Assembly: GCF_964019745.1 (NCBI RefSeq)
Contig: NZ_OZ026462.1
Coordinates: forward strand, 60,001-92,000
Direction: 5' to 3'
Length of the DNA stretch: 32,000 nt
Origin: Candidatus Saccharimonadota bacterium
GTDB taxonomy: Bacteria > Pseudomonadota > Gammaproteobacteria > Burkholderiales > Burkholderiaceae
Part shown: one piece after another, positions 8,006 through 26,292 of the stretch
Position numbering within the stretch: the stretch's first letter is position 1
How the letters are laid out: each line of letters begins with the position of its first letter
Notes under the pieces: generated by a model
Seen by the model: only the letters and a program-made list of their open reading frames with translations
What the model was told of the DNA's origin: nothing
The model's database searches: none
Translations under genes and position numbers: made by a program

Positions 8006-8174
8006 TTATTTAAGATAAAATATTTACAAGAATAAAAAAAATTTAAATTATATTTTATAAATAAAAAATTATGTTTTTAATATATAAAAAAAAAAAAATA
8101 TTAGAAATAATAATAAAAAAAAAATATTAAATATAATTATAACATAATATAAAAATTATTTTAAACTAAATATT

Positions 8175-8248
8175 AGTGATATAGCTTAAATGGTTAAAGC
8201 ACAGCACTCATAACGCTGAGAGTGGTGGTTCAATTCCACCTATCACTA
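8175..8248 (+). tRNA. tRNA with CAU anticodon, elongator type (tRNA-Met, or tRNA-Ile2 if lysidinylated)
   Basis: Hand-folded 74-nt cloverleaf. Acceptor agtgata/tatcact; D stem gctt/aagc; anticodon loop ctCATaa (CAT at 8209..8211). T arm ggtgg-ttcaatt-ccacc, discriminator A, no encoded CCA. The 1:72 pair is A-T, so it is not initiator-like. There is one A/C mismatch at the 31:39 position. It is the only GC-enriched patch in the intergenic DNA. Confidence 0.85.
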
Positions 8249-8262
8249 AAATATATAAATAT

Positions 8263-9588
8263 ATGGAATATAAAATATATATTAAAACTTTTGGTTGTCA
8301 AATGAATGTTTATGATTCAAAAAAAATTTTAGAAATATTAAATATATATTTTAAAATTATTAAAATAAAAAATAAAGAAGATGCTAATATAATTATATTA
8401 AATACATGTTCAATAAGAGAAAAAGCAAAAGAAAAATTTTTTTCTGAATTAGGTAGAATTTCAAAACTTAAAAAAAAAAAAAAATTTTTAATTTGTATTG
8501 GAGGATGTGTTGCGCAAGAAGAAAAAGAAAAAATTTTTAAAAGATCACCTTTAGTTGATATAATTTTTAGTCCTAAAACATTACATATGTTACCAACAAT
8601 GATTAAAAATCATGAAAAAAATAAAAAACAAATAAAAATAAATTCTACAATTTTAAAAAAATTTTTAATAATTAAAAAAAAAAAAAAAAATAATAATCCA
8701 ACAGCTTTTTTAACAATAATGGAAGGATGTAATAAATTTTGTAGTTATTGTATAGTACCACAAACTAGAGGAAAAGAAATTTCGAGAAATATTAAAAATA
8801 TTTTAGAAGAAATTAAAGAATTTATAAAACAAGGGAAAAAAGAGATTATTTTATTAGGGCAAAATGTTAATGCTTTTAAAAATTTTAAAAATAATAAAAA
8901 AAAAGATTTTTCTGATTTAATAAAATATATTTCAAAAATCCCAGAAATTAAAAGAATAAAATTTATCACAAATCATCCTAAAGAATTTACAGAAAAATTA
9001 ATTAATAGTTATATTAATAATTCTAAATTAGGTAATCATATTTATTTACCAGTACAACATGCCTCTAATAAAATTTTAAAAAAAATGCGTAGAGGTTATA
9101 CTATAGAAGAATATAAAAATATTATATATAAAATAAAAAAAATAAAACCTAATATATCAATATCAACTGATTTTATTATTGGTTTTCCTGGAGAAAATGA
9201 TAATGATTTTAAAAAATTAATAAATTTAATTAATGAGATAAAATTTGATACTAGTTATAGTTTTATATATAGTCCAAGACTTAAAACATTAGCAGCAAAA
9301 TTTATAAATAACATTCCTGAAATAATTAAAAAATATAGATTGCAATATATACAAACAATAATTAAAAAAAATATTTATAAAATTAATAAAAATATGATAG
9401 GTTCAAAACAATATGTTTTAGTAGAAAATATATCAAAAAAAAATCCTTTAAAATTAACAGGTAAAACAGAAAATAATAAAATAGTTAATTTTTATATAAA
9501 AAAAAATAAAAAAAAAATTATAGGTAAAATTATACCTATAAAAATTACTAAAGCTTTTCAATTTTATTTAGAAGGTAAAATAATATAA
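8263..9588 (+). CDS. miaB: tRNA methylthiotransferase (radical SAM, MiaB-like)
   Basis: 441 aa. N-terminal KTFGCQMNVYDS (UPF0004 domain), radical-SAM cluster EGCNKFCSYCIVPQTRGKE, and a C-terminal TRAM-like region. Synteny with ybeY is as in many proteobacteria. Confidence 0.88.
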   Translation: MEYKIYIKTFGCQMNVYDSKKILEILNIYFKIIKIKNKEDANIIILNTCSIREKAKEKFFSELGRISKLKKKKKFLICIGGCVAQEEKEKIFKRSPLVDIIFSPKTLHMLPTMIKNHEKNKKQIKINSTILKKFLIIKKKKKNNNPTAFLTIMEGCNKFCSYCIVPQTRGKEISRNIKNILEEIKEFIKQGKKEIILLGQNVNAFKNFKNNKKKDFSDLIKYISKIPEIKRIKFITNHPKEFTEKLINSYINNSKLGNHIYLPVQHASNKILKKMRRGYTIEEYKNIIYKIKKIKPNISISTDFIIGFPGENDNDFKKLINLINEIKFDTSYSFIYSPRLKTLAAKFINNIPEIIKKYRLQYIQTIIKKNIYKINKNMIGSKQYVLVENISKKNPLKLTGKTENNKIVNFYIKKNKKKIIGKIIPIKITKAFQFYLEGKII

Positions 9589-9612: not shown

Positions 9613-10058
9613 ATGAAAAAAAAAAATAAAATATATATTAATTATTATAATAAATATATAAATAAAATTATACCTTATTTTATAATATATAAATGTGGGA
9701 ATTTAATTTTTAAAAAAAAAACAGAGATTTCAATTATTAATGTAAAAAAAAAAAAATTAAAAAACTTAATTTTAAATATAGAAAAAAAAAAAAAATAACT
9801 AATATTTTAACTTTTACATATATAAAAAAAAAAAATATAAAAGCTGATATAATTTTATGTATAAAAAAAATAATACAAGAAGCAAAAAAACAAAAAAAAA
9901 CACTTTTATTTCATATAATTCATTTAATAATACATGGGATGTTACATATACAAGGTTATAAACATAATAATAAAAAAACTTTAAAAAAAATGAAAAAAAA
10001 AGAAATAAAAATTTTAAAAAAAATAGGATTTAAAAATCCATATATTATTAATTTTTAA
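9613..10058 (+). pseudogene. ybeY: endoribonuclease YbeY, split by a frameshift inside an A13 run (9744..9756)
   Basis: Frame of 9613 gives ...TEISIINVKKKK, then runs to a stop at 9796..9798. The frame ending at stop 10056..10058 gives IKKLNFKYRKKKKITNILTF...ADIILC...HLIIHGMLHIQGYKH. The latter carries the YbeY TNVLSF-like motif and the HxxxHxxxxxH zinc site. Adding one A to the run fuses the halves into about 148 aa. Confidence 0.78.
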
Positions 10059-10091: not shown

Positions 10092-10967
10092 ATGATAACT
10101 ATACAAAAAATTATATTTAAACTTAATAAATTTTGGGAAAAATATGGATGTATATTATTACAACCATATGATATAGAAATAGGTGCCGGTACATCACATA
10201 CAGCAACTTTTTTAAAAGCTATAGGACCAGAACATTGGAAAGCTGCTTATATACAAAATTCTAGAAGACCTAAAGATGGAAAATATGGAAAAAATTTTAA
10301 TAAAATTCAAAATTATTTTCAATATCAAGTAGTTTTAAAACCTACTCCAGATAATTTTTTAGATTTATATATAAATTCATTAAAATTTTTAAAATTAAAT
10401 TTTAAAAATAATGATATTAGATTTATAGAAGATAATTGGAAAAATCCAACATTAGGTTCATGGGGGGTAGGATGGGAAGTAAAATTAAATGGTATAGAAA
10501 TAACACAAATAACATATTTTCAACAAGTTGGTTGTATAAATTGTAATCCAATATTAGGTGAAATTACCTATGGCATAGAAAGACTTGCTATGCATTTACA
10601 AAATAATAAAAATATTAACAATTTAATTTGGACAGAAATTAAAAATAAAAATAAAATTAAAAAAATATTATATAAAGAATTATTTATTCAAAATGAATAT
10701 GAATTTTCATTATTAAATTTTAATTTTTATAATAAAAAAATTTTATTAGAAACATTTAATATATATGAAAAAGAATCAAAAAGATTAATTAATTTATTAT
10801 TAATTTTTCCATCATATGAAATGATGTTAAAATCAACACATATTTTTAATTTATTAGAAGCTACTGGTACTATTTCTGCAATAGAAAAAATTAATTATAT
10901 ATATCGTATTAAAAAAATATCTTGTAAAATTGCAAAATTATATCTTTCTTTAAAAAATAAAAAATAA
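10092..10967 (+). CDS. glyQ: glycyl-tRNA synthetase alpha subunit (intact copy)
   Basis: 291 aa. FWEKYGCILLQPYDIEIGAGTSHTATFL and WGVGWEVKLNGIEITQITYFQQVG are highly conserved GlyQ blocks. Confidence 0.96.
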   Translation: MITIQKIIFKLNKFWEKYGCILLQPYDIEIGAGTSHTATFLKAIGPEHWKAAYIQNSRRPKDGKYGKNFNKIQNYFQYQVVLKPTPDNFLDLYINSLKFLKLNFKNNDIRFIEDNWKNPTLGSWGVGWEVKLNGIEITQITYFQQVGCINCNPILGEITYGIERLAMHLQNNKNINNLIWTEIKNKNKIKKILYKELFIQNEYEFSLLNFNFYNKKILLETFNIYEKESKRLINLLLIFPSYEMMLKSTHIFNLLEATGTISAIEKINYIYRIKKISCKIAKLYLSLKNKK

Positions 10968-11002
10968 ATAAATTTATATATAATATATTTTAATAATTTA
11001 AA

Positions 11003-13114
11003 ATGATAAAAAAAAATCTTTTGATAGAATTAATGACAGAAGAACTACCTCATAAAATTTTATTAAATATAGAAAATACATTTACAAAAAATATTATTTA
11101 TAAATTACAATTAGAAAATTTTATAAAAAAAAATTCATATATAGAAACATATTCAACAATACGACGAATAGGTATATATATAAAAAATGTAAAAAAAAAA
11201 TCTAAAAGTTTAATTTTTAAAAAAAAAATATTATCTAAAAATATAGCCTTTGATAAAAATAATCGTCCAACTTTTTTTTTAATAAAAAAAATTTCAATAA
11301 TTTCTAAAATTAATAATTTTTATAAAATTTCTATTAATAAAATAAAAAAAAAAAATAAAAATAATAAAAAGGAATTATTTTTTTATTATAAAAAAAAAAA
11401 TATATATTTAAAATATTTTTTAAAAAATGTATTAGAAAATTCTATAAAAAAATTATCTATTTATAGATTTATGAAATATAATAAAAAAATAAATAAAAAT
11501 TTCATAAAAATTATTGAATTTATTAGACCAATAAAAAATTTATTAATTATTTTTGGTAAAAAAATAATTTCATTAAATATTCTTCATATTAATTCAAATT
11601 CTATAACTTATGGTAATAGATTTATTAAAAATAATATTTTAAATATTAATAATGCAAATAATTATTCTAAAATATTAATAAAAGAAGGTAAAGTAATACC
11701 AAACTTTTCTCAAAGATTATTAACAATAAAAAATCTTTTATTTAAAAAAGCTAAAAATTATAAATTATCTATAAACAAAAAATTATTAAAAGAAATTACA
11801 GCTCTTATTGAATGGCCAACAGTATATAAATGTGCGTTTAATAAAGTTTTTTTAAAACTTCCAAAAAAATGTATAAAAATAATAATTCAAAATTTTCAAA
11901 AACATTTTATTTTAAAAAATAAATATAATAAAATATGTAAATATTTTCTTATAGTTTGTAACTCTAACACTAAAAATTTTAAAAATATTATTCAAGAATA
12001 TGAAAAATCAATTTTTTATATATTATCAGAAATAAAAATCTTTTTTAAAAAAGATAAAAAAACTACATTATATAAAAAAAAAAAATTATTAAAAAATATT
12101 ATTTATCATAATAAATTAGGAAATCAATTACAAAGAATAAAAAGAATAAAAAAAATATCAATAGATATTTCCAATATTATTAAATGTAATAAATATTTGC
12201 TAAAAAGAAGTTTATCTCTATTTAAAATTGATCTTACTACTAAAATAGTAAAAAAATTTCCAATTTTACAGGGAATTATAGGAAAATATTATGCAATATA
12301 TGATGGAGAAAATAAAAAAGTTGCTAAATCTATATTAGAACATTATTTACCTAAATTTTTTAATGATAAATTACCATTTTTAAAAATTTCAATAATAATT
12401 TCTATAGCAGACAAATTAGAAATTATAATTGGTATTTGGAATATAGGTTTTAAACCTAAAAATAATAAAGATCCTTTTAAAATTAAAAGAAATATAATTG
12501 GATTATTACAAATATTAATAGAAAAAAAATTATTATTATCTATACCAATGTTAATAAAACAAACTATTAATAGTTTTAAAAAAAATAATATTTTTAAGAA
12601 TCAATATATGAATATATATAATTTTATTTATAAAAAATTAAATAAATTATTATTAAAATATAATTTTAAAAAAAATGAAATAAAATCTATAATTTCTAAA
12701 AAACCAAAAATTATTGGAGATATAATTTATAAATTAAAAACATTAAAAATAATTAATTTTTCAATAAAATATAATAATTTATTTATTTCTAATAAAAGAA
12801 TTATAAATATTTTAAAAAAATTTAATAAAAATATTTATATAAATAAAAAATATTTAAAAAAAAAATATGAAATATATATTTATAATAAAATTATAAAAAC
12901 ACAAAAATTAATTAATATTAATATTAAAAAAAAAAAATATATTAATATATTTAATAAATTATTAATTTTTAATAAATATATAGAAAAATTTTTTAAAAAA
13001 ATAAAAATAAATTCAAAAAATATAAATTATAAAAATAATAGAAAAGCAATATTAAAAAATATATATAATATGTTAAATAAAATTATAAATTTAAATTTTT
13101 TAAAAAAAAATTAA
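11003..13114 (+). CDS. glyS: glycyl-tRNA synthetase beta subunit (copy 1)
   Basis: 703 aa directly after glyQ. The N-terminus LLIELMTEELP and LQGIIGKYYA are GlyS-like. Otherwise it is very diverged and Lys-rich. Confidence 0.85.
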   Translation: MIKKNLLIELMTEELPHKILLNIENTFTKNIIYKLQLENFIKKNSYIETYSTIRRIGIYIKNVKKKSKSLIFKKKILSKNIAFDKNNRPTFFLIKKISIISKINNFYKISINKIKKKNKNNKKELFFYYKKKNIYLKYFLKNVLENSIKKLSIYRFMKYNKKINKNFIKIIEFIRPIKNLLIIFGKKIISLNILHINSNSITYGNRFIKNNILNINNANNYSKILIKEGKVIPNFSQRLLTIKNLLFKKAKNYKLSINKKLLKEITALIEWPTVYKCAFNKVFLKLPKKCIKIIIQNFQKHFILKNKYNKICKYFLIVCNSNTKNFKNIIQEYEKSIFYILSEIKIFFKKDKKTTLYKKKKLLKNIIYHNKLGNQLQRIKRIKKISIDISNIIKCNKYLLKRSLSLFKIDLTTKIVKKFPILQGIIGKYYAIYDGENKKVAKSILEHYLPKFFNDKLPFLKISIIISIADKLEIIIGIWNIGFKPKNNKDPFKIKRNIIGLLQILIEKKLLLSIPMLIKQTINSFKKNNIFKNQYMNIYNFIYKKLNKLLLKYNFKKNEIKSIISKKPKIIGDIIYKLKTLKIINFSIKYNNLFISNKRIINILKKFNKNIYINKKYLKKKYEIYIYNKIIKTQKLININIKKKKYINIFNKLLIFNKYIEKFFKKIKINSKNINYKNNRKAILKNIYNMLNKIINLNFLKKN

Positions 13115-13893
13115 TTTTTTTTTTTTTTTAAAAAATTTGATAATAAAATATATTGTTTTATTGTTAACATTTCTGGTCTTAATTTAGGATTAATTTTTAA
13201 AAAAATAAAATCTTCTTTAGAAAAAAAATTACTAACACAATTAAAAATAAATTTTCTACGATTTGAAAAGGCTTTAATTAAAATTTTATTTAAAAAAAAT
13301 ATATTATATTTAATAAGTATTTTTTTTGAAATTATACGAACCATAGCTGATTTTACTTTAGGCTTAGGTTTAAAAGATTCAGGATTAATTAAAAATAATA
13401 ATTTTATTTTAAAATGAATCTGTAACATAATAGATAAACGACCAAATTTTTTATTTCCTGGTTTAGCTATCATACGATCCACAAATTCTTTTTGTAAAAT
13501 AAAATGTTGATCTATTAATAAATTGGAAAATTGTATAAGATAAAATAAAAGTAAACTAGAAATATTATATGGTAAACTTCCTATTAATCTAATTTTTTTT
13601 TTAAATCTATTAAAAAAATTTAAAAAATTAAAATTTAAAACATCTAAAAAATAAATTTTTATTTTTTTTAAAAAAAATTTTTTTTTTAAAAAATTAACTA
13701 AATTTTTGTCTATTTCTATAACATAAATTTTTTTTAAAAATTTTAATAAATATTTAGTAATATTACCATATCCAGGACCAATTTCAATAACTAAATCATC
13801 ATTTTTAAAATCTAAAAATGAAATTATTTTTTTTATAATATTTTTATCTATTAAAAAATTTTGAGAAAAATTTTTTTTTTTATTTTTTTTCAT
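13111..13893 (-). CDS. rsmA: 16S rRNA (adenine1518/1519-N6) dimethyltransferase (copy 1)
   Basis: 260 aa. NFSQNFLIDKNII and the SAM-binding VIEIGPGYGNIT are typical KsgA/RsmA motifs. Confidence 0.9.
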   Translation of the reverse strand: MKKNKKKNFSQNFLIDKNIIKKIISFLDFKNDDLVIEIGPGYGNITKYLLKFLKKIYVIEIDKNLVNFLKKKFFLKKIKIYFLDVLNFNFLNFFNRFKKKIRLIGSLPYNISSLLLFYLIQFSNLLIDQHFILQKEFVDRMIAKPGNKKFGRLSIMLQIHFKIKLLFLINPESFKPKPKVKSAMVRIISKKILIKYNIFFLNKILIKAFSNRRKFIFNCVSNFFSKEDFIFLKINPKLRPEMLTIKQYILLSNFLKKKKN

Positions 13894-14049
13894 ATTTTTT
13901 ATATATAAAATTATATTTTTACTTAAAATATTAAAATATTATTTTTATATTATTTATATAAAAAATATATAAATATTTTATATTTATAATAATTTATATT
14001 ATTATATATAATTAATAAAAAAAAAATTAAATATAATTTTTATTTAAAA

Positions 14050-15147
14050 ATGAAAAAAAAAAAAATAATATTAGGAATGTCTGGAGGTATAGATTCTTCA
14101 GTATCAGCTTGGATTTTAAAAGAACAAGGATATGAAGTAATAGGTTTATTTATGAATAATTGGAATGATAATAAAAAAAAAAATAATTTTTGTAATAATA
14201 AAAAAGATTTAATTGATGCTATAAGCATAGCAGATATTATAGGAATAAATATTAAAATAGTAAATTTTTCAAAAGAATATAAAAAATATATTTTTTCAAA
14301 TTTTATAAAAGAATATAAAAAAGGTAATACACCTAATCCAGATATAACTTGTAATTCTATAATTAAATTTAATTTTTTTTTAAATTATGCAAATTCTATC
14401 TTAAAAACTAATTTAATTGCCACAGGACATTATGCTAGAATAAAAAAAACTTTAAAAGGTAAATATAAATTATTAAAAGCTAAAGATTTAAATAAAGATC
14501 AAAGTTATTTTTTATATAGATTAAATCAAAAACAATTATCAAAAAGTATCTTTCCTATAGGAAATTTCTATAAAACAAAAATTAAAGAAATTGCTAAAAA
14601 ACTTAAATTTCCTAATGTAAACAAAAAAAATTCTACTGGGATTTGTTTTATAGGTAAAAGACCATTTAGAAAATTTCTAAATAATTATATAAATTATAAT
14701 CCTGGGCCAATAAAAACTACAAGTGGAATAACAATTTCAAAACATATAGGATTAAGTTTTTATACTATAGGTCAAAGAAAAGGTATAGGTATTGGTGGTA
14801 TAAAAAAAAATATATATATAAAAAAAAAAAATACTCCTTGGTATGTTGCTAAAAAAAATATAAAAAAAAATATTTTATATGTTGTACAAGGTCATAATCA
14901 TCCATGGTTATTATCATATAAAATTATAATATATAAAACTCATTGGATATCAGGTAAAGCACCTAAAAACTTTTCAATATTAAAAGCAAAAATTAGATAT
15001 AGACAAAAAGATTCAAAATGTATTATATATTATTATAACAAACTATATATTTTATATTTTATAGAACCTCAATGGGGTGCAGCTAAAGGACAATCAATAG
15101 TATTATATAATAAAAATATATGTTTAGGAGGAGGGATTATTAAATAA
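14050..15147 (+). CDS. mnmA: tRNA 2-thiouridine(34) synthase (copy 1)
   Basis: 365 aa. PP-loop GMSGGIDSSVSAWIL, plus TPNPDITCN, ATGHYAR and KDQSYFL motifs. Confidence 0.95.
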   Translation: MKKKKIILGMSGGIDSSVSAWILKEQGYEVIGLFMNNWNDNKKKNNFCNNKKDLIDAISIADIIGINIKIVNFSKEYKKYIFSNFIKEYKKGNTPNPDITCNSIIKFNFFLNYANSILKTNLIATGHYARIKKTLKGKYKLLKAKDLNKDQSYFLYRLNQKQLSKSIFPIGNFYKTKIKEIAKKLKFPNVNKKNSTGICFIGKRPFRKFLNNYINYNPGPIKTTSGITISKHIGLSFYTIGQRKGIGIGGIKKNIYIKKKNTPWYVAKKNIKKNILYVVQGHNHPWLLSYKIIIYKTHWISGKAPKNFSILKAKIRYRQKDSKCIIYYYNKLYILYFIEPQWGAAKGQSIVLYNKNICLGGGIIK

Positions 15148-15220
15148 TAATATACAAATTAATTATATATATAACAATATTTTTTATTTATTAAAATATA
15201 TTTTAAAAAGGAAAATTATT

Positions 15221-15685
15221 ATGAATAATTTAAAAATTATTAATTTATTAAATGATCAATTAATTAATGAATTAATAGCAAGTAATCAATATTTTTTAAA
15301 TTCTATAATTTATAAACATTTAGGTTATAAAAAAATTGCATTAAAAGAAAAAAATGAATCAAAAGAAGAATTAAAACATGCAAAAAAAATTTTAAATAGA
15401 ATATTAACTCTTGAAGGTAAACCCAATATTGAAATTTTAAATAAATTTATATTTAGTAATAATATAGAAGAAATTTTAAAAAATAATTTATATTTTGAAA
15501 AAAAAATTCAAAAAAATCTTAAAAAAAATATACTTATATGTGAAAAAAAATATGATTATATCACAAGAATACTTTTAGAAGAAATTTTATATGATTCTAT
15601 TAAACATATAAAATGGATAAAATTTGAATTAAATATTATTAATATAATTGGAATTAAAGATTACTTAAAAATACAAATTAATTAA
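15221..15685 (+). CDS. bfr: bacterioferritin-like protein (copy 1)
   Basis: 154 aa, colinear with E. coli Bfr as I recall it (INLLNDQLINELIASNQYFL; EELKHA; ILTLEGKPN; KHIKWI). An AAGGA ribosome-binding site lies upstream (about 15208). Confidence 0.8.
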   Translation: MNNLKIINLLNDQLINELIASNQYFLNSIIYKHLGYKKIALKEKNESKEELKHAKKILNRILTLEGKPNIEILNKFIFSNNIEEILKNNLYFEKKIQKNLKKNILICEKKYDYITRILLEEILYDSIKHIKWIKFELNIINIIGIKDYLKIQIN

Positions 15686-15707
15686 TTTTTAAAATTATAA
15701 AGATAAA

Positions 15708-17240
15708 TTAAATATTTCGTAAATAAGGAAATAAAATTACATCTTTTATACTAAAAGAATTTGTTAAAATCATAACTAAACGATCAATACCAATACCACA
15801 TCCAGCTGTAGGTGGCATACCATATTCTAAAGCATTAATATAATCTTTATCATAATATTTATTATTTTTAAATGTTTTTTTTTTAATATTTTTAATATTA
15901 ATATTTTTATGTTTTATAATTTGTTTTAAAAATCTTTTAGATTGTTCTTTAGAATCATTTAATTCAGAAAAACCATTAGCTATTTCACAACCATAAATAA
16001 ATAATTCAAAACGTTCAGTTATATTTTTATTAATATTTGATAAACGTGCTAAAGGAGAAACAGAAACTGGATAATCTATAATATAAGTAGGATTAATTAT
16101 TTTAGATTTTGTTGTTATATCAAATAAAATTAATTGCATTTGATATAAATCCATATCTAAATTTTTAATAATTTTTTTATTTAATTTTAAACTAATTTTT
16201 TTTAATTCTAAATATAAAAAAGAAATATTATTTAATTGAAATATAGTATAATTTGTATAATTTAATATAGCATCAATAATAGTAAATCTTTTAAAAGGTT
16301 TAGAAAAATCTATTTTTTTTTCACGATATTTTATTATATTTTTTTTATATAAAAAAAAAGTTAATTTTTTAAAAATTTTTTCAATAAAAATCATTAACCA
16401 TTTATAATCAACATAAGTTGAATAAAATTCTAACATAGTAAATTCAGGATTATGAAAAATAGATAAACCTTCATTACGAAAATTTCTATTAATTTCAAAA
16501 ATTCTATTAAAACCACCAACAATTAATTTTTTTAAAAATAATTCTGGAGAAACTCTTAAAAACATTTTCATATTTAAAGAATTATGATATGTAATAAATG
16601 GTTTAGCTGAAGCTCCTCCAGGAATTTTATGAAACATTGGTGTTTCAACTTCTAAAAAATCATTTTTTTCTAAAAATTTTCTAATAAAAGAAATAATAGA
16701 AGATCTAATTTTAAAAACTAATCTTACTTTAGGATTTATAATTAAATCTAAATATCGTTTACGATATTTAATTTCTTTATTTGATAAACCATAAAATTTA
16801 CTTGAAATTTGATGAATAGATTTATTAATAAATAAAATTTTATTAACTTTTATAGTTAATTCATTTGTATTAGTTTTAAATAAAATTCCACATACTCCAA
16901 TAATATCTCCTAAATCATAATTTTTAAAATTATTAAATCCAATTTTACCTAATATATTATAATTAATATATATTTGAATTTTTCCATTTAAAAAAGATCC
17001 TGAAAAATCACTAATTAAAGCAAAAATTGCTTTTCCAAAAATTCGTTTAGTAAATATTCTACCGGCTATAGAAACATTAATTTTTTTTTTTTCTAAAATT
17101 AATTTATCAAAATTATTATATTTTTTACATAAAAAATATGTTTTATTTTTAGGAATAAAATTATTAGGAAAATTAAAACCTTGAGAAATCATTAAATCTA
17201 ATTTTTTTTTTCTATTATTAATTTCTGAAAAAATATTCAT
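15708..17240 (-). CDS. lysS: lysyl-tRNA synthetase, class II (copy 1)
   Basis: 510 aa. YRKRYLDLI, FLEVETPMFH, RNEGLSIFHNPEFTMLEFY and GMPPTAGCGIGIDRLVMILT are class II LysRS motifs. Confidence 0.95.
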   Translation of the reverse strand: MNIFSEINNRKKKLDLMISQGFNFPNNFIPKNKTYFLCKKYNNFDKLILEKKKINVSIAGRIFTKRIFGKAIFALISDFSGSFLNGKIQIYINYNILGKIGFNNFKNYDLGDIIGVCGILFKTNTNELTIKVNKILFINKSIHQISSKFYGLSNKEIKYRKRYLDLIINPKVRLVFKIRSSIISFIRKFLEKNDFLEVETPMFHKIPGGASAKPFITYHNSLNMKMFLRVSPELFLKKLIVGGFNRIFEINRNFRNEGLSIFHNPEFTMLEFYSTYVDYKWLMIFIEKIFKKLTFFLYKKNIIKYREKKIDFSKPFKRFTIIDAILNYTNYTIFQLNNISFLYLELKKISLKLNKKIIKNLDMDLYQMQLILFDITTKSKIINPTYIIDYPVSVSPLARLSNINKNITERFELFIYGCEIANGFSELNDSKEQSKRFLKQIIKHKNINIKNIKKKTFKNNKYYDKDYINALEYGMPPTAGCGIGIDRLVMILTNSFSIKDVILFPYLRNI

Positions 17241-17297
17241 TTTTTTATAAATTAAATAAATTTTTAAAATTATATTAAAAATAAATATAAATATATT

Positions 17298-18037
17298 TTA
17301 TACTTTTAATTTTAAAAATTCATAAATAAAATTATCTATTTTACCATCTAAAGTACCTTTTATATCATTAGTTTGATAATTAGTTCTTAAATCTTTAATA
17401 AATGATTTATCTAAAATATAAGATCTAATTTGTTGCCCCCAACTTATATTAGATTTCAAATTTTCAATTTTTTTACGTTTAATTAATTGTTTATTTTTTT
17501 CAAAATTATATAATTTATTTTTTAACATATTCCATGCAGTAACTTTATTACGATATTGACTTCGACTATTTTGACATTTAACTACTATTCCAGTAGGAAT
17601 ATGAGTTAAACGAACAGCAGAATCAGTTTTATTAACATGTTGTCCACCAGCACCTGAAGATTTATAAGTATCAATTTTTACACTAGAAATATCAATTGTA
17701 ATTTTTATTAAATTTTCATAATCAGGATATACAAATAAACTAGCAAAAGAAGTATGTCTATTTTTTGAAAAATTAAATGGAGATTTTCTTACTAAACGAT
17801 GAATACCTGTTTCAGTTTTTAAAAAACCAAATGCATATTTACCTTTTACTTTAATTGTTGCTAATCTTATACCATTTTTTTCACCATAAGATTTATGCAT
17901 AATTTCAGTTTTAAATTTTTTTCTCTCACAATATTTTAAATATTGACGTAATAATATAAAAGACCAATCTTCTGCATCTATACCTCCAGCACCAGCTTTT
18001 ATATCTATAAAACAATTTTTTTTATCAATAGAATTAT
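17298..18037 (-). pseudogene. prfB: peptide chain release factor 2, 5'-truncated duplicate fragment (C-terminal ~246 codons)
   Basis: Identical to 25186..25925 of the full gene. It ends abruptly at the duplication junction. The first in-frame ATG is at 17900 (the 200-aa ORF in the track, which contains the SPF and GGQ motifs). Confidence 0.88.
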
Positions 18038-18855
18038 GTATATTATTACAACCATATGATATAGAAATAGGTGCCGGTACATCACATACAGCAACTTTTT
18101 TAAAAGCTATAGGACCAGAACATTGGAAAGCTGCTTATATACAAAATTCTAGAAGACCTAAAGATGGAAAATATGGAAAAAATTTTAATAAAATTCAAAA
18201 TTATTTTCAATATCAAGTAGTTTTAAAACCTACTCCAGATAATTTTTTAGATTTATATATAAATTCATTAAAATTTTTAAAATTAAATTTTAAAAATAAT
18301 GATATTAGATTTATAGAAGATAATTGGAAAAATCCAACATTAGGTTCATGGGGGGTAGGATGGGAAGTAAAATTAAATGGTATAGAAATAACACAAATAA
18401 CATATTTTCAACAAGTTGGTTGTATAAATTGTAATCCAATATTAGGTGAAATTACCTATGGCATAGAAAGACTTGCTATGCATTTACAAAATAATAAAAA
18501 TATTAACAATTTAATTTGGACAGAAATTAAAAATAAAAATAAAATTAAAAAAATATTATATAAAGAATTATTTATTCAAAATGAATATGAATTTTCATTA
18601 TTAAATTTTAATTTTTATAATAAAAAAATTTTATTAGAAACATTTAATATATATGAAAAAGAATCAAAAAGATTAATTAATTTATTATTAATTTTTCCAT
18701 CATATGAAATGATGTTAAAATCAACACATATTTTTAATTTATTAGAAGCTACTGGTACTATTTCTGCAATAGAAAAAATTAATTATATATATCGTATTAA
18801 AAAAATATCTTGTAAAATTGCAAAATTATATCTTTCTTTAAAAAATAAAAAATAA
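18036..18855 (+). pseudogene. glyQ: glyQ duplicate lacking the first ~18 codons and the start codon
   Basis: Identical to 10148..10967. The frame is open back to 17947 but has no ATG before 18478 (my own translation). The ORF-track entry 18478..18855 is only the tail of this fragment. Confidence 0.88.
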
Positions 18856-18890
18856 ATAAATTTATATATAATATATTTTAATAATTTAAA

Positions 18891-21002
18891 ATGATAAAAA
18901 AAAATCTTTTGATAGAATTAATGACAGAAGAACTACCTCATAAAATTTTATTAAATATAGAAAATACATTTACAAAAAATATTATTTATAAATTACAATT
19001 AGAAAATTTTATAAAAAAAAATTCATATATAGAAACATATTCAACAATACGACGAATAGGTATATATATAAAAAATGTAAAAAAAAAATCTAAAAGTTTA
19101 ATTTTTAAAAAAAAAATATTATCTAAAAATATAGCCTTTGATAAAAATAATCGTCCAACTTTTTTTTTAATAAAAAAAATTTCAATAATTTCTAAAATTA
19201 ATAATTTTTATAAAATTTCTATTAATAAAATAAAAAAAAAAAATAAAAATAATAAAAAGGAATTATTTTTTTATTATAAAAAAAAAAATATATATTTAAA
19301 ATATTTTTTAAAAAATGTATTAGAAAATTCTATAAAAAAATTATCTATTTATAGATTTATGAAATATAATAAAAAAATAAATAAAAATTTCATAAAAATT
19401 ATTGAATTTATTAGACCAATAAAAAATTTATTAATTATTTTTGGTAAAAAAATAATTTCATTAAATATTCTTCATATTAATTCAAATTCTATAACTTATG
19501 GTAATAGATTTATTAAAAATAATATTTTAAATATTAATAATGCAAATAATTATTCTAAAATATTAATAAAAGAAGGTAAAGTAATACCAAACTTTTCTCA
19601 AAGATTATTAACAATAAAAAATCTTTTATTTAAAAAAGCTAAAAATTATAAATTATCTATAAACAAAAAATTATTAAAAGAAATTACAGCTCTTATTGAA
19701 TGGCCAACAGTATATAAATGTGCGTTTAATAAAGTTTTTTTAAAACTTCCAAAAAAATGTATAAAAATAATAATTCAAAATTTTCAAAAACATTTTATTT
19801 TAAAAAATAAATATAATAAAATATGTAAATATTTTCTTATAGTTTGTAACTCTAACACTAAAAATTTTAAAAATATTATTCAAGAATATGAAAAATCAAT
19901 TTTTTATATATTATCAGAAATAAAAATCTTTTTTAAAAAAGATAAAAAAACTACATTATATAAAAAAAAAAAATTATTAAAAAATATTATTTATCATAAT
20001 AAATTAGGAAATCAATTACAAAGAATAAAAAGAATAAAAAAAATATCAATAGATATTTCCAATATTATTAAATGTAATAAATATTTGCTAAAAAGAAGTT
20101 TATCTCTATTTAAAATTGATCTTACTACTAAAATAGTAAAAAAATTTCCAATTTTACAGGGAATTATAGGAAAATATTATGCAATATATGATGGAGAAAA
20201 TAAAAAAGTTGCTAAATCTATATTAGAACATTATTTACCTAAATTTTTTAATGATAAATTACCATTTTTAAAAATTTCAATAATAATTTCTATAGCAGAC
20301 AAATTAGAAATTATAATTGGTATTTGGAATATAGGTTTTAAACCTAAAAATAATAAAGATCCTTTTAAAATTAAAAGAAATATAATTGGATTATTACAAA
20401 TATTAATAGAAAAAAAATTATTATTATCTATACCAATGTTAATAAAACAAACTATTAATAGTTTTAAAAAAAATAATATTTTTAAGAATCAATATATGAA
20501 TATATATAATTTTATTTATAAAAAATTAAATAAATTATTATTAAAATATAATTTTAAAAAAAATGAAATAAAATCTATAATTTCTAAAAAACCAAAAATT
20601 ATTGGAGATATAATTTATAAATTAAAAACATTAAAAATAATTAATTTTTCAATAAAATATAATAATTTATTTATTTCTAATAAAAGAATTATAAATATTT
20701 TAAAAAAATTTAATAAAAATATTTATATAAATAAAAAATATTTAAAAAAAAAATATGAAATATATATTTATAATAAAATTATAAAAACACAAAAATTAAT
20801 TAATATTAATATTAAAAAAAAAAAATATATTAATATATTTAATAAATTATTAATTTTTAATAAATATATAGAAAAATTTTTTAAAAAAATAAAAATAAAT
20901 TCAAAAAATATAAATTATAAAAATAATAGAAAAGCAATATTAAAAAATATATATAATATGTTAAATAAAATTATAAATTTAAATTTTTTAAAAAAAAATT
21001 AA
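18891..21002 (+). CDS. glyS: glycyl-tRNA synthetase beta subunit (copy 2, identical)
   Basis: The 703-aa protein is identical to the product of 11003..13114 at an offset of 7888. Confidence 0.85.
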   Translation: MIKKNLLIELMTEELPHKILLNIENTFTKNIIYKLQLENFIKKNSYIETYSTIRRIGIYIKNVKKKSKSLIFKKKILSKNIAFDKNNRPTFFLIKKISIISKINNFYKISINKIKKKNKNNKKELFFYYKKKNIYLKYFLKNVLENSIKKLSIYRFMKYNKKINKNFIKIIEFIRPIKNLLIIFGKKIISLNILHINSNSITYGNRFIKNNILNINNANNYSKILIKEGKVIPNFSQRLLTIKNLLFKKAKNYKLSINKKLLKEITALIEWPTVYKCAFNKVFLKLPKKCIKIIIQNFQKHFILKNKYNKICKYFLIVCNSNTKNFKNIIQEYEKSIFYILSEIKIFFKKDKKTTLYKKKKLLKNIIYHNKLGNQLQRIKRIKKISIDISNIIKCNKYLLKRSLSLFKIDLTTKIVKKFPILQGIIGKYYAIYDGENKKVAKSILEHYLPKFFNDKLPFLKISIIISIADKLEIIIGIWNIGFKPKNNKDPFKIKRNIIGLLQILIEKKLLLSIPMLIKQTINSFKKNNIFKNQYMNIYNFIYKKLNKLLLKYNFKKNEIKSIISKKPKIIGDIIYKLKTLKIINFSIKYNNLFISNKRIINILKKFNKNIYINKKYLKKKYEIYIYNKIIKTQKLININIKKKKYINIFNKLLIFNKYIEKFFKKIKINSKNINYKNNRKAILKNIYNMLNKIINLNFLKKN

Positions 21003-21781
21003 TTTTTTTTTTTTTTTAAAAAATTTGATAATAAAATATATTGTTTTATTGTTAACATTTCTGGTCTTAATTTAGGATTAATTTTTAAAAAAATAAAATC
21101 TTCTTTAGAAAAAAAATTACTAACACAATTAAAAATAAATTTTCTACGATTTGAAAAGGCTTTAATTAAAATTTTATTTAAAAAAAATATATTATATTTA
21201 ATAAGTATTTTTTTTGAAATTATACGAACCATAGCTGATTTTACTTTAGGCTTAGGTTTAAAAGATTCAGGATTAATTAAAAATAATAATTTTATTTTAA
21301 AATGAATCTGTAACATAATAGATAAACGACCAAATTTTTTATTTCCTGGTTTAGCTATCATACGATCCACAAATTCTTTTTGTAAAATAAAATGTTGATC
21401 TATTAATAAATTGGAAAATTGTATAAGATAAAATAAAAGTAAACTAGAAATATTATATGGTAAACTTCCTATTAATCTAATTTTTTTTTTAAATCTATTA
21501 AAAAAATTTAAAAAATTAAAATTTAAAACATCTAAAAAATAAATTTTTATTTTTTTTAAAAAAAATTTTTTTTTTAAAAAATTAACTAAATTTTTGTCTA
21601 TTTCTATAACATAAATTTTTTTTAAAAATTTTAATAAATATTTAGTAATATTACCATATCCAGGACCAATTTCAATAACTAAATCATCATTTTTAAAATC
21701 TAAAAATGAAATTATTTTTTTTATAATATTTTTATCTATTAAAAAATTTTGAGAAAAATTTTTTTTTTTATTTTTTTTCAT
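20999..21781 (-). CDS. rsmA: 16S rRNA dimethyladenosine transferase (copy 2, identical)
   Basis: The protein is identical to the product of 13111..13893. Confidence 0.9.
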   Translation of the reverse strand: MKKNKKKNFSQNFLIDKNIIKKIISFLDFKNDDLVIEIGPGYGNITKYLLKFLKKIYVIEIDKNLVNFLKKKFFLKKIKIYFLDVLNFNFLNFFNRFKKKIRLIGSLPYNISSLLLFYLIQFSNLLIDQHFILQKEFVDRMIAKPGNKKFGRLSIMLQIHFKIKLLFLINPESFKPKPKVKSAMVRIISKKILIKYNIFFLNKILIKAFSNRRKFIFNCVSNFFSKEDFIFLKINPKLRPEMLTIKQYILLSNFLKKKKN

Positions 21782-21937
21782 ATTTTTTATATATAAAATT
21801 ATATTTTTACTTAAAATATTAAAATATTATTTTTATATTATTTATATAAAAAATATATAAATATTTTATATTTATAATAATTTATATTATTATATATAAT
21901 TAATAAAAAAAAAATTAAATATAATTTTTATTTAAAA

Positions 21938-23035
21938 ATGAAAAAAAAAAAAATAATATTAGGAATGTCTGGAGGTATAGATTCTTCAGTATCAGCTTGG
22001 ATTTTAAAAGAACAAGGATATGAAGTAATAGGTTTATTTATGAATAATTGGAATGATAATAAAAAAAAAAATAATTTTTGTAATAATAAAAAAGATTTAA
22101 TTGATGCTATAAGCATAGCAGATATTATAGGAATAAATATTAAAATAGTAAATTTTTCAAAAGAATATAAAAAATATATTTTTTCAAATTTTATAAAAGA
22201 ATATAAAAAAGGTAATACACCTAATCCAGATATAACTTGTAATTCTATAATTAAATTTAATTTTTTTTTAAATTATGCAAATTCTATCTTAAAAACTAAT
22301 TTAATTGCCACAGGACATTATGCTAGAATAAAAAAAACTTTAAAAGGTAAATATAAATTATTAAAAGCTAAAGATTTAAATAAAGATCAAAGTTATTTTT
22401 TATATAGATTAAATCAAAAACAATTATCAAAAAGTATCTTTCCTATAGGAAATTTCTATAAAACAAAAATTAAAGAAATTGCTAAAAAACTTAAATTTCC
22501 TAATGTAAACAAAAAAAATTCTACTGGGATTTGTTTTATAGGTAAAAGACCATTTAGAAAATTTCTAAATAATTATATAAATTATAATCCTGGGCCAATA
22601 AAAACTACAAGTGGAATAACAATTTCAAAACATATAGGATTAAGTTTTTATACTATAGGTCAAAGAAAAGGTATAGGTATTGGTGGTATAAAAAAAAATA
22701 TATATATAAAAAAAAAAAATACTCCTTGGTATGTTGCTAAAAAAAATATAAAAAAAAATATTTTATATGTTGTACAAGGTCATAATCATCCATGGTTATT
22801 ATCATATAAAATTATAATATATAAAACTCATTGGATATCAGGTAAAGCACCTAAAAACTTTTCAATATTAAAAGCAAAAATTAGATATAGACAAAAAGAT
22901 TCAAAATGTATTATATATTATTATAACAAACTATATATTTTATATTTTATAGAACCTCAATGGGGTGCAGCTAAAGGACAATCAATAGTATTATATAATA
23001 AAAATATATGTTTAGGAGGAGGGATTATTAAATAA
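21938..23035 (+). CDS. mnmA: tRNA 2-thiouridine(34) synthase (copy 2, identical)
   Basis: The protein is identical to the product of 14050..15147. Confidence 0.95.
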   Translation: MKKKKIILGMSGGIDSSVSAWILKEQGYEVIGLFMNNWNDNKKKNNFCNNKKDLIDAISIADIIGINIKIVNFSKEYKKYIFSNFIKEYKKGNTPNPDITCNSIIKFNFFLNYANSILKTNLIATGHYARIKKTLKGKYKLLKAKDLNKDQSYFLYRLNQKQLSKSIFPIGNFYKTKIKEIAKKLKFPNVNKKNSTGICFIGKRPFRKFLNNYINYNPGPIKTTSGITISKHIGLSFYTIGQRKGIGIGGIKKNIYIKKKNTPWYVAKKNIKKNILYVVQGHNHPWLLSYKIIIYKTHWISGKAPKNFSILKAKIRYRQKDSKCIIYYYNKLYILYFIEPQWGAAKGQSIVLYNKNICLGGGIIK

Positions 23036-23108
23036 TAATATACAAATTAATTATATATATAACAATATTTTTTATTTATTAAAATATATTTTAAAAAGGA
23101 AAATTATT

Positions 23109-23573
23109 ATGAATAATTTAAAAATTATTAATTTATTAAATGATCAATTAATTAATGAATTAATAGCAAGTAATCAATATTTTTTAAATTCTATAATTTA
23201 TAAACATTTAGGTTATAAAAAAATTGCATTAAAAGAAAAAAATGAATCAAAAGAAGAATTAAAACATGCAAAAAAAATTTTAAATAGAATATTAACTCTT
23301 GAAGGTAAACCCAATATTGAAATTTTAAATAAATTTATATTTAGTAATAATATAGAAGAAATTTTAAAAAATAATTTATATTTTGAAAAAAAAATTCAAA
23401 AAAATCTTAAAAAAAATATACTTATATGTGAAAAAAAATATGATTATATCACAAGAATACTTTTAGAAGAAATTTTATATGATTCTATTAAACATATAAA
23501 ATGGATAAAATTTGAATTAAATATTATTAATATAATTGGAATTAAAGATTACTTAAAAATACAAATTAATTAA
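23109..23573 (+). CDS. bfr: bacterioferritin-like protein (copy 2, identical)
   Basis: The protein is identical to the product of 15221..15685. Confidence 0.8.
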   Translation: MNNLKIINLLNDQLINELIASNQYFLNSIIYKHLGYKKIALKEKNESKEELKHAKKILNRILTLEGKPNIEILNKFIFSNNIEEILKNNLYFEKKIQKNLKKNILICEKKYDYITRILLEEILYDSIKHIKWIKFELNIINIIGIKDYLKIQIN

Positions 23574-23595
23574 TTTTTAAAATTATAAAGATAAA

Positions 23596-25128
23596 TTAAA
23601 TATTTCGTAAATAAGGAAATAAAATTACATCTTTTATACTAAAAGAATTTGTTAAAATCATAACTAAACGATCAATACCAATACCACATCCAGCTGTAGG
23701 TGGCATACCATATTCTAAAGCATTAATATAATCTTTATCATAATATTTATTATTTTTAAATGTTTTTTTTTTAATATTTTTAATATTAATATTTTTATGT
23801 TTTATAATTTGTTTTAAAAATCTTTTAGATTGTTCTTTAGAATCATTTAATTCAGAAAAACCATTAGCTATTTCACAACCATAAATAAATAATTCAAAAC
23901 GTTCAGTTATATTTTTATTAATATTTGATAAACGTGCTAAAGGAGAAACAGAAACTGGATAATCTATAATATAAGTAGGATTAATTATTTTAGATTTTGT
24001 TGTTATATCAAATAAAATTAATTGCATTTGATATAAATCCATATCTAAATTTTTAATAATTTTTTTATTTAATTTTAAACTAATTTTTTTTAATTCTAAA
24101 TATAAAAAAGAAATATTATTTAATTGAAATATAGTATAATTTGTATAATTTAATATAGCATCAATAATAGTAAATCTTTTAAAAGGTTTAGAAAAATCTA
24201 TTTTTTTTTCACGATATTTTATTATATTTTTTTTATATAAAAAAAAAGTTAATTTTTTAAAAATTTTTTCAATAAAAATCATTAACCATTTATAATCAAC
24301 ATAAGTTGAATAAAATTCTAACATAGTAAATTCAGGATTATGAAAAATAGATAAACCTTCATTACGAAAATTTCTATTAATTTCAAAAATTCTATTAAAA
24401 CCACCAACAATTAATTTTTTTAAAAATAATTCTGGAGAAACTCTTAAAAACATTTTCATATTTAAAGAATTATGATATGTAATAAATGGTTTAGCTGAAG
24501 CTCCTCCAGGAATTTTATGAAACATTGGTGTTTCAACTTCTAAAAAATCATTTTTTTCTAAAAATTTTCTAATAAAAGAAATAATAGAAGATCTAATTTT
24601 AAAAACTAATCTTACTTTAGGATTTATAATTAAATCTAAATATCGTTTACGATATTTAATTTCTTTATTTGATAAACCATAAAATTTACTTGAAATTTGA
24701 TGAATAGATTTATTAATAAATAAAATTTTATTAACTTTTATAGTTAATTCATTTGTATTAGTTTTAAATAAAATTCCACATACTCCAATAATATCTCCTA
24801 AATCATAATTTTTAAAATTATTAAATCCAATTTTACCTAATATATTATAATTAATATATATTTGAATTTTTCCATTTAAAAAAGATCCTGAAAAATCACT
24901 AATTAAAGCAAAAATTGCTTTTCCAAAAATTCGTTTAGTAAATATTCTACCGGCTATAGAAACATTAATTTTTTTTTTTTCTAAAATTAATTTATCAAAA
25001 TTATTATATTTTTTACATAAAAAATATGTTTTATTTTTAGGAATAAAATTATTAGGAAAATTAAAACCTTGAGAAATCATTAAATCTAATTTTTTTTTTC
25101 TATTATTAATTTCTGAAAAAATATTCAT
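23596..25128 (-). CDS. lysS: lysyl-tRNA synthetase, class II (copy 2, identical)
   Basis: The protein is identical to the product of 15708..17240. This copy keeps the native prfB-lysS arrangement. Confidence 0.95.
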   Translation of the reverse strand: MNIFSEINNRKKKLDLMISQGFNFPNNFIPKNKTYFLCKKYNNFDKLILEKKKINVSIAGRIFTKRIFGKAIFALISDFSGSFLNGKIQIYINYNILGKIGFNNFKNYDLGDIIGVCGILFKTNTNELTIKVNKILFINKSIHQISSKFYGLSNKEIKYRKRYLDLIINPKVRLVFKIRSSIISFIRKFLEKNDFLEVETPMFHKIPGGASAKPFITYHNSLNMKMFLRVSPELFLKKLIVGGFNRIFEINRNFRNEGLSIFHNPEFTMLEFYSTYVDYKWLMIFIEKIFKKLTFFLYKKNIIKYREKKIDFSKPFKRFTIIDAILNYTNYTIFQLNNISFLYLELKKISLKLNKKIIKNLDMDLYQMQLILFDITTKSKIINPTYIIDYPVSVSPLARLSNINKNITERFELFIYGCEIANGFSELNDSKEQSKRFLKQIIKHKNINIKNIKKKTFKNNKYYDKDYINALEYGMPPTAGCGIGIDRLVMILTNSFSIKDVILFPYLRNI

Positions 25129-25185
25129 TTTTTTATAAATTAAATAAATTTTTAAAATTATATTAAAAATAAATATAAATATATT

Positions 25186-26292
25186 TTATACTTTTAATTT
25201 TAAAAATTCATAAATAAAATTATCTATTTTACCATCTAAAGTACCTTTTATATCATTAGTTTGATAATTAGTTCTTAAATCTTTAATAAATGATTTATCT
25301 AAAATATAAGATCTAATTTGTTGCCCCCAACTTATATTAGATTTCAAATTTTCAATTTTTTTACGTTTAATTAATTGTTTATTTTTTTCAAAATTATATA
25401 ATTTATTTTTTAACATATTCCATGCAGTAACTTTATTACGATATTGACTTCGACTATTTTGACATTTAACTACTATTCCAGTAGGAATATGAGTTAAACG
25501 AACAGCAGAATCAGTTTTATTAACATGTTGTCCACCAGCACCTGAAGATTTATAAGTATCAATTTTTACACTAGAAATATCAATTGTAATTTTTATTAAA
25601 TTTTCATAATCAGGATATACAAATAAACTAGCAAAAGAAGTATGTCTATTTTTTGAAAAATTAAATGGAGATTTTCTTACTAAACGATGAATACCTGTTT
25701 CAGTTTTTAAAAAACCAAATGCATATTTACCTTTTACTTTAATTGTTGCTAATCTTATACCATTTTTTTCACCATAAGATTTATGCATAATTTCAGTTTT
25801 AAATTTTTTTCTCTCACAATATTTTAAATATTGACGTAATAATATAAAAGACCAATCTTCTGCATCTATACCTCCAGCACCAGCTTTTATATCTATAAAA
25901 CAATTTTTTTTATCAATAGAATTATTAAAAATTTTTTTAAATTCTATTAATATAATTTTTTTTTTTATTTTTTTTATTTCTAATAAAATAAAATCTAATA
26001 AAGAAAAATTTTTTTCTAAAAAAGTAAGTAAAATTAATTCTTTTATATTTTTTATTTCTAAATTAATTAATTTAATTTTATTTAAAATTTTTTCAATTTT
26101 TTTTTTTTTATTTAAAAAAAAAATTTTTTTTTTATATTGATTATAAATTAAAGGTTTTAATAATTCATTATTAATTTTTTTAATTTTTTTTTTTTTTTTT
26201 TTAATATTTAAAATATTACATAATTTTACAAAAAGTAATAATATCTTTTTAAAAGATATTTTTAATATTTCTTTTTTTTTTAAAAATATCAT
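25186..26292 (-). CDS. prfB: peptide chain release factor 2 (full length, single ORF)
   Basis: 368 aa. The SPF tripeptide (RKSPFNF) specifies RF2; the GGQ motif (SSGAGGQHVNKTDSAVRLTHIPTG) is present. There is no internal in-frame stop or +1 frameshift site. Confidence 0.92.
   Translation of the reverse strand: MIFLKKKEILKISFKKILLLFVKLCNILNIKKKKKKIKKINNELLKPLIYNQYKKKIFFLNKKKKIEKILNKIKLINLEIKNIKELILLTFLEKNFSLLDFILLEIKKIKKKIILIEFKKIFNNSIDKKNCFIDIKAGAGGIDAEDWSFILLRQYLKYCERKKFKTEIMHKSYGEKNGIRLATIKVKGKYAFGFLKTETGIHRLVRKSPFNFSKNRHTSFASLFVYPDYENLIKITIDISSVKIDTYKSSGAGGQHVNKTDSAVRLTHIPTGIVVKCQNSRSQYRNKVTAWNMLKNKLYNFEKNKQLIKRKKIENLKSNISWGQQIRSYILDKSFIKDLRTNYQTNDIKGTLDGKIDNFIYEFLKLKV

Follow-up and report, generated by a model that had tools for sequence, protein, structure and literature searches.

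Frameshifts in coding poly(A) tracts

Frameshifts at homopolymers are well described in AT-rich insect endosymbionts, and the closest cases to the one analyzed here come from Buchnera and Blochmannia (Tamas et al. 2008, as presented in PMC5009743 and PMC3017870). In the account given by these two sources, a 1-nt indel lies in a long coding poly(A) tract of a conserved housekeeping gene that is otherwise intact, and the rescue proposed is the addition of an A by the RNA polymerase. The same sources place the fraction of corrected transcripts at 12-50%, and PMC3017870 cites about 30% as the share of transcripts of frameshifted genes that are full-length. Symbiont genome papers routinely count genes with such poly(A) frameshifts as intact (PMC3017870). 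A/T runs accounted for 151 of the 157 insertions found in transcription in Buchnera, most insertions being of one base, and the rates rise exponentially with run length; among the errors detected in those data, none restored a reading frame (PMC5574713). Ribosomes have also been found to slide on homopolymeric A (Koutmou et al. 2015, PMC4363877), in E. coli and with reporter constructs rather than in the symbiont studied here. Lastly, PMC3017870 describes, through its references 15 and 16, frameshifts that are conserved between symbiont populations and species without degradation of the gene; the Blochmannia studies by Wernegreen and colleagues are among these references.

In this work, we analyzed a ybeY gene split at a run of 13 A in the genome of a betaproteobacterial insect symbiont (hereafter G000). 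This extremely AT-rich genome of 336.6 kb is deposited as a single contig of 336,619 bp with 16.9% GC. The window, that is, the whole stretch of 32,000 nucleotides that was analyzed, corresponds to G000:C1:60001-92000, and coordinates given below without a prefix are positions within it. Like the Buchnera and Blochmannia genes, ybeY appears from its sequence to carry a single 1-nt indel in a coding homopolymer of about 9 bases or more while being otherwise intact. It departs from them in belonging to a betaproteobacterial symbiont and in the length of its tract, A13 against the up to 12 bp given for such symbionts in PMC3017870. As judged from the sequences compared, it also seems to differ from the conserved, Blochmannia-type frameshifts in that the ybeY of its relative is intact (junction V-NKKK-I), so that conservation offers no proof in this case; the same frameshift appears to be kept in a relative for another gene of this genome, rsmG.

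Layout of the split gene and site of the shift

ybeY covers 446 nt of the plus strand (9613-10058) and is laid out in two frames that overlap at 9741-9798. Frame A runs from the ATG at 9613 to a premature TAA at 9796-9798, which terminates it after 61 codons if no slip occurs; its first 48 codons (9613-9756, Met1 to Lys48) form the 5' part of the gene and end in the A13 run. Frame B is open over 105 codons, from 9741 to the TAA at 10056-10058, and provides the 3' part (9756-10058, 100 codons plus the TAA) with Arg57 (9780-9782), the ITNILTF block and the metal site. As frame B lies at -1 relative to frame A, the frame is restored by one additional A, or by the removal of two, in the run of exactly 13 A at 9744-9756. 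As deposited there is thus no continuous ORF for ybeY, and one arises only with A14 or A11. Insertion of one A yields a stop-free product of 148 aa, to which we refer as the A14 model.

The initial annotation had described both parts as YbeY-like. This was clear for the C-terminal part, as frame B alone matched the Pfam YbeY family (PF02130) with an E value of 7.5e-25 over profile positions 36-128 of 129. The first 48 codons had no match of their own in Pfam, and their kinship to YbeY emerged from the comparison with relatives: they are identical at 28 of 48 positions to the N-terminus of an intact 148-aa YbeY (P0002), and they raise the score against a custom YbeY profile by 13 bits (148.0 vs 134.8). 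The read-through protein P0001, equivalent to the A11 version, matched PF02130 over positions 19-128 of the 129 in the profile, with a score of 92 bits (E 3.4e-26). The PDB YbeY chains 1xm5 (E. coli) and 1xax (H. influenzae) match at E values of about 1e-16, and the match between the read-through and 1xm5, over residues 33-145, continues without interruption across the junction.

The zinc site HLIIHGMLHIQGYKH lies at 9921-9965 and has the H-x3-H-x5-H pattern of the known YbeY proteins. Its histidines, encoded at 9933-9935, 9945-9947 and 9963-9965, are His108, His112 and His118 of the 148-aa model. Within it, HGMLHIQGYKH (9933-9965) is aligned to HGSLHLLGYDH of 1xm5, and the three histidines are invariant in our alignment (A1). 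The conserved arginine of the LN-x-x-YR motif is retained as Arg57 in LNFKYR, as are the three zinc histidines. These results bear out what the initial annotation had claimed about the two-part layout with an A13 at 9744-9756, about the intact metal site and ITNILTF block of the C-terminal part, and about the continuous 148-aa YbeY, with no other lesion, produced by one extra A; this last product is moreover gapless against P0002. The symbiont protein thus resembles 1xm5 and 1xax in its full-length family match, its motifs and its length of 148 aa, and is set apart from them by an extremely lysine-rich composition and by the frameshift that splits it. We also rejected the idea that the C-terminal part is expressed by itself, since frame B has no ATG, GTG or TTG before 9939, a position inside the metal site.

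The gene sits in a setting shared with its relatives. Upstream, miaB (8263-9588, plus strand) is intact and contains in-frame runs of A15 and A17; downstream, glyQ (10092-10967, plus strand) is intact as well. The miaB-ybeY adjacency is found in the relative G017 and the ybeY-glyQ adjacency in the relative G006. No RNA gene, tRNA or terminator overlapping the locus was found, the nearest being a tRNA-Met at 8174-8249. An exact look-up of both ybeY pieces, glyQ and miaB in the protein collection returned them only on the 336,619-bp contig, and a search of that collection for short forms of ybeY returned only the window's own pieces. Just downstream of ybeY, inside glyQ, begins a tandem duplication whose two copies match letter for letter at a period of 7,888 bp (10148-18037 identical to 18036-25925, hence window positions 10148-25925), with a partial second copy of glyQ at its junction.

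Regarding the position of the shift, the initial annotation had stated that the frames change exactly within the A13 run. The sequence by itself is less specific: the zone permitting the shift extends over 9741-9795 and contains a second long run, an A14 at 9782-9795, which is in frame in frame B (where it encodes KKKK before ITNILTF) and provides an alternative site. Three further runs of at least 10 A are present in the gene, an A11 at 9616-9626, an A10 at 9712-9721 and an A12 at 9824-9835. We scored the possible shifts against a YbeY profile built from 21 relatives. Extending A13 to A14 gave 148.0 bits and shortening it to A11 gave 141.1 bits, while the C-terminal part alone scored 134.8 bits. 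A +1 shift in the second run reached only 128.8 bits, 19 below the A13 site, and was rejected, as was a +1 shift in the upstream A10, which scored 131.8 bits and left a stop in the product. It is thus the homology score, and not the position, that singles out A13 as the shift site, and on those grounds the earlier placement stands. The alignment to P0002, a Logan-derived relative, illustrates this result: its YbeY shares 72-73% identity with the A14 model without gaps and reads V-NKKK-IKKLNF at the junction, where the model reads V-KKKK-IKKLNF. The A14 model also matches the spacing of E. coli YbeY.

Coding homopolymers and split genes across the genome

The family to which this genome belongs spans, in our search for relatives, genomes of about 0.2 to 7 Mb, among them G006 (208,564 bp) and G017 (459,399 bp). 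The load of coding homopolymers in G000 is extreme: 448 in-frame sense poly(A) runs of at least 10 were counted in 288 ORFs (117 of them of at least 13, the longest being A23), as opposed to only 43 sense poly(T) runs of at least 10. In addition, all 18 homopolymers of at least 10 in the 7,888-bp duplication are identical between its two copies. The in-frame runs, together with the identical duplicated ones, indicate that the assembly is not full of homopolymer errors. As a separate remark, the deposited sequence contains 619 N.

We searched the ORFs of a 1.12-Mb relative (G008) against this genome. Among the about 250 gene matches, hisA, rsmG and ybeY were split, and rnpA, which was checked separately, brings the total to four. 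Only three of these genes are broken at poly(A) runs of at least 10, namely ybeY (A13), rnpA (a T13-A16 pair) and rsmG (A11), and each of them requires one more A. In rnpA, the gene of the RNase P protein (G000:C1:123500-123950, outside the window, with the gene at 123570-123886), the sole frame with an ATG stops right after A16 and the conserved core goes on in the -1 frame; the Pfam Ribonuclease_P match accordingly has one TAA inside it.

The third gene, rsmG (G000:C1:128761-129437, outside the window), is split at an A11 run at G000 positions 129199-129209. Its N-terminal ORF is of 142 aa and ends in RVENFKKKNFTI, with four out-of-frame codons after A11. The nearest database protein to this ORF, P0016, comes from an independent Logan assembly (a 2,095-bp contig) and is 79% identical; it also has exactly 142 aa and ends in RVENFKKKTFLI, an out-of-frame tail of a similar kind. 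As the same break is found in a lineage whose protein is about 21% diverged, and as both lineages have kept the upstream ORF intact, it is inherited, real, old and tolerated, and such breaks thus persist in this clade. This pattern is like that of the frameshifts conserved without degradation which PMC3017870 refers to. By analogy, the rsmG case would raise the prior for a real, tolerated break in ybeY, although it is not evidence on the run of ybeY itself.

A different genetic code as the cause of the split was rejected: the matches to real genes contain 518 TGG codons and a single TGA, and the ORFs end in TAA (205), TGA (3) or TAG (1). As TGA is not read as Trp in G000, translation table 11 is appropriate. 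An apparent signal of TGA aligned to Cys or Trp was traced to antisense shadow ORFs of a reference genome with 43% GC. In G006, unlike in G000, glyQ alone requires six readings of TGA as Trp, so that the genetic code varies within this group of tiny genomes.

Rescue, miscall or loss of ybeY

Taken together, these results point towards a real break, with A13 where A14 is needed, in a ybeY gene that is still expressed by slippage, a reading to which we give roughly even odds (about 0.5). We infer both that the DNA tract is truly 13 bases long and that slipped products exist. Rescue by slippage of the RNA polymerase or of the ribosome is plausible by analogy with the systems described above. The break might have originated in two steps. 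First, a Lys codon would have replaced the Asn codon by which the run of the relative is broken up (V-NKKK-I), fusing the A's into a run of 14 bases; then, replication slippage in a genome with no detected MutS would have deleted one A. Searches of the genome for MutS domain V and for the C-terminal domain of GreA/GreB gave no match, results that carry little weight in so diverged a genome and that are consistent with sloppy transcription and unstable runs.

A minority of expression events would then return to the proper frame at the A13 run and yield the full-length YbeY of 148 aa, and they might do so in two ways. In the first, backward slippage of the RNA polymerase would lengthen the mRNA by one A. 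In the second, the ribosome would slide by -1 on the run, which offers four consecutive AAA codons: the tRNA-Lys at 9754-9756 would re-pair with 9753-9755, leaving AUU (9756-9758) as the next codon. Such a slide, alike in kind to that described in PMC4363877, would give the product of an A14 transcript, and both routes would lead to the same junction, VKKKK-IKKLNFKYR, in the same 148-aa protein. The yield could be very low, as there are five runs of at least 10 A in the 446 nt of ybeY and the four others would derail many transcripts.

A somewhat unlikely, but by no means far-fetched, explanation is that ybeY is simply intact, A14 being the true or a co-dominant tract length, either because a long run was miscalled or because a polyploid symbiont that lacks mismatch repair carries both lengths. 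A homopolymer of 13 or 14 bases is a classic place for a length error, and all four split genes require one more base, as under-calling would produce. Besides, an unstable tract length in the DNA is what would be expected with no MutS detected, and the undecayed state of ybeY fits an intact gene perfectly. A search for sequencing runs that contain the region listed eight, of DNA or of unknown type and none of RNA; the best of them has 0.99 of the words sampled from it rather than 1.00, a shortfall that the figure does not localize. Against a miscall, the 448 long coding runs that are in frame (including the 117 of at least 13) set the error rate per run at about 1% or less; a rate of around 1% would nevertheless suffice to explain ybeY. 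Moreover, the rsmG break, reproduced in the independent assembly of a divergent relative, means that at least one break of this type is real, and the three genes broken at poly(A) are all small RNA-processing genes, a draw that does not look random, albeit noticed post hoc.

We find it unlikely that the gene has just been lost, with a real A13, slippage products too rare or useless and a role that is dispensable or otherwise covered. Gene erosion in endosymbionts usually begins with homopolymer frameshifts (PMC3017870), hisA, rnpA and rsmG are likewise broken in this genome, and the five slippery runs in such a short gene would lower the yield of error-free product. The comparison with relatives that the initial annotation had suggested could also be read in this direction: it recovered an intact ybeY with an interrupted run in P0002, and the A13 break was not common to both. 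As P0002 is the only relative found and is intact, the break is lineage-specific rather than old or conserved, which would suit a recent loss. However, there is no second lesion in 148 lysine-rich codons, in which single substitutions (AAA to TAA) would readily create stops.

The pace of evolution does not favor loss either. We counted, at the protein level, the sites at which only one of the two proteins, that of G000 or P0002, differs from an outgroup. G000 and P0002 had 4 and 10 unique changes, respectively, when G006 served as the outgroup, the same numbers when G017 did, and 9 and 7 when P0005 did. The branch of the split gene thus shows no higher rate than its intact counterpart, and the sequences suggest no pseudogene-like acceleration; a very young break, or one that is not real, would leave the gene just as free of decay. 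Besides, ybeY is present in 31 of 31 genomes (G000 and the 30 relatives searched), its frames being open even in G005 and G006, of about 0.2 Mb, and in the 0.46-Mb G017, so that its loss would be unusual in this group. Finally, at the slippage rates presented in PMC5574713, PMC5009743 and PMC4363877, as far as these sources give them, some in-frame product would be hard to avoid on an A13. The single lesion, the intact motif, the lack of excess substitutions, the retention in 30 relatives and the sister case of rsmG thus support, indirectly, that ybeY is still useful to the symbiont.

It is tempting to speculate further that an RNA-maturation set made of ybeY (A13), rnpA (T13-A16) and rsmG (A11) is stably one A short, its expression depending obligatorily on +1 slippage of the polymerase or -1 sliding of the ribosome; this would be a standing low-yield regime and not a step towards gene loss, in a genome in which neither GreA/GreB nor MutS was detected and 448 other long runs keep their frame. 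We put this forward tentatively, as it is rather doubtful that it holds for the three genes. Whichever reading is right, this is an ordinary case of the homopolymer frameshifts of AT-rich insect endosymbionts. In annotation, ybeY, rnpA and rsmG would be better marked as "frameshifted at a homopolymer, probably expressed" than as lost, a choice that bears on the minimal RNA-processing set inferred for a 0.34-Mb symbiont. The lineages in which slippage may buffer frameshifts are also joined by a betaproteobacterial symbiont whose coding runs are unusually long, reaching A23. ybeY, rnpA and the conserved rsmG break make a convenient trio of targets, without opening a new question.

The most useful by-products of this analysis are the conserved break of rsmG and the site in hisA. 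The latter gene lies outside the window on the minus strand (G000:C1:57050-58050), in a his gene cluster that is intact in other respects. It requires one more nucleotide, and its split falls in a run of no more than four A, at GAA-AAG-TAG. Such a short run could not sustain polymerase slippage; the candidates are frameshifting by the ribosome, a genuine loss of the gene or an error. Should tRNA-Lys shift by -1 from AAG onto AAA while the stop codon occupies the A site, translation would go on into VVLHW, colinear with the HisA of the relative.
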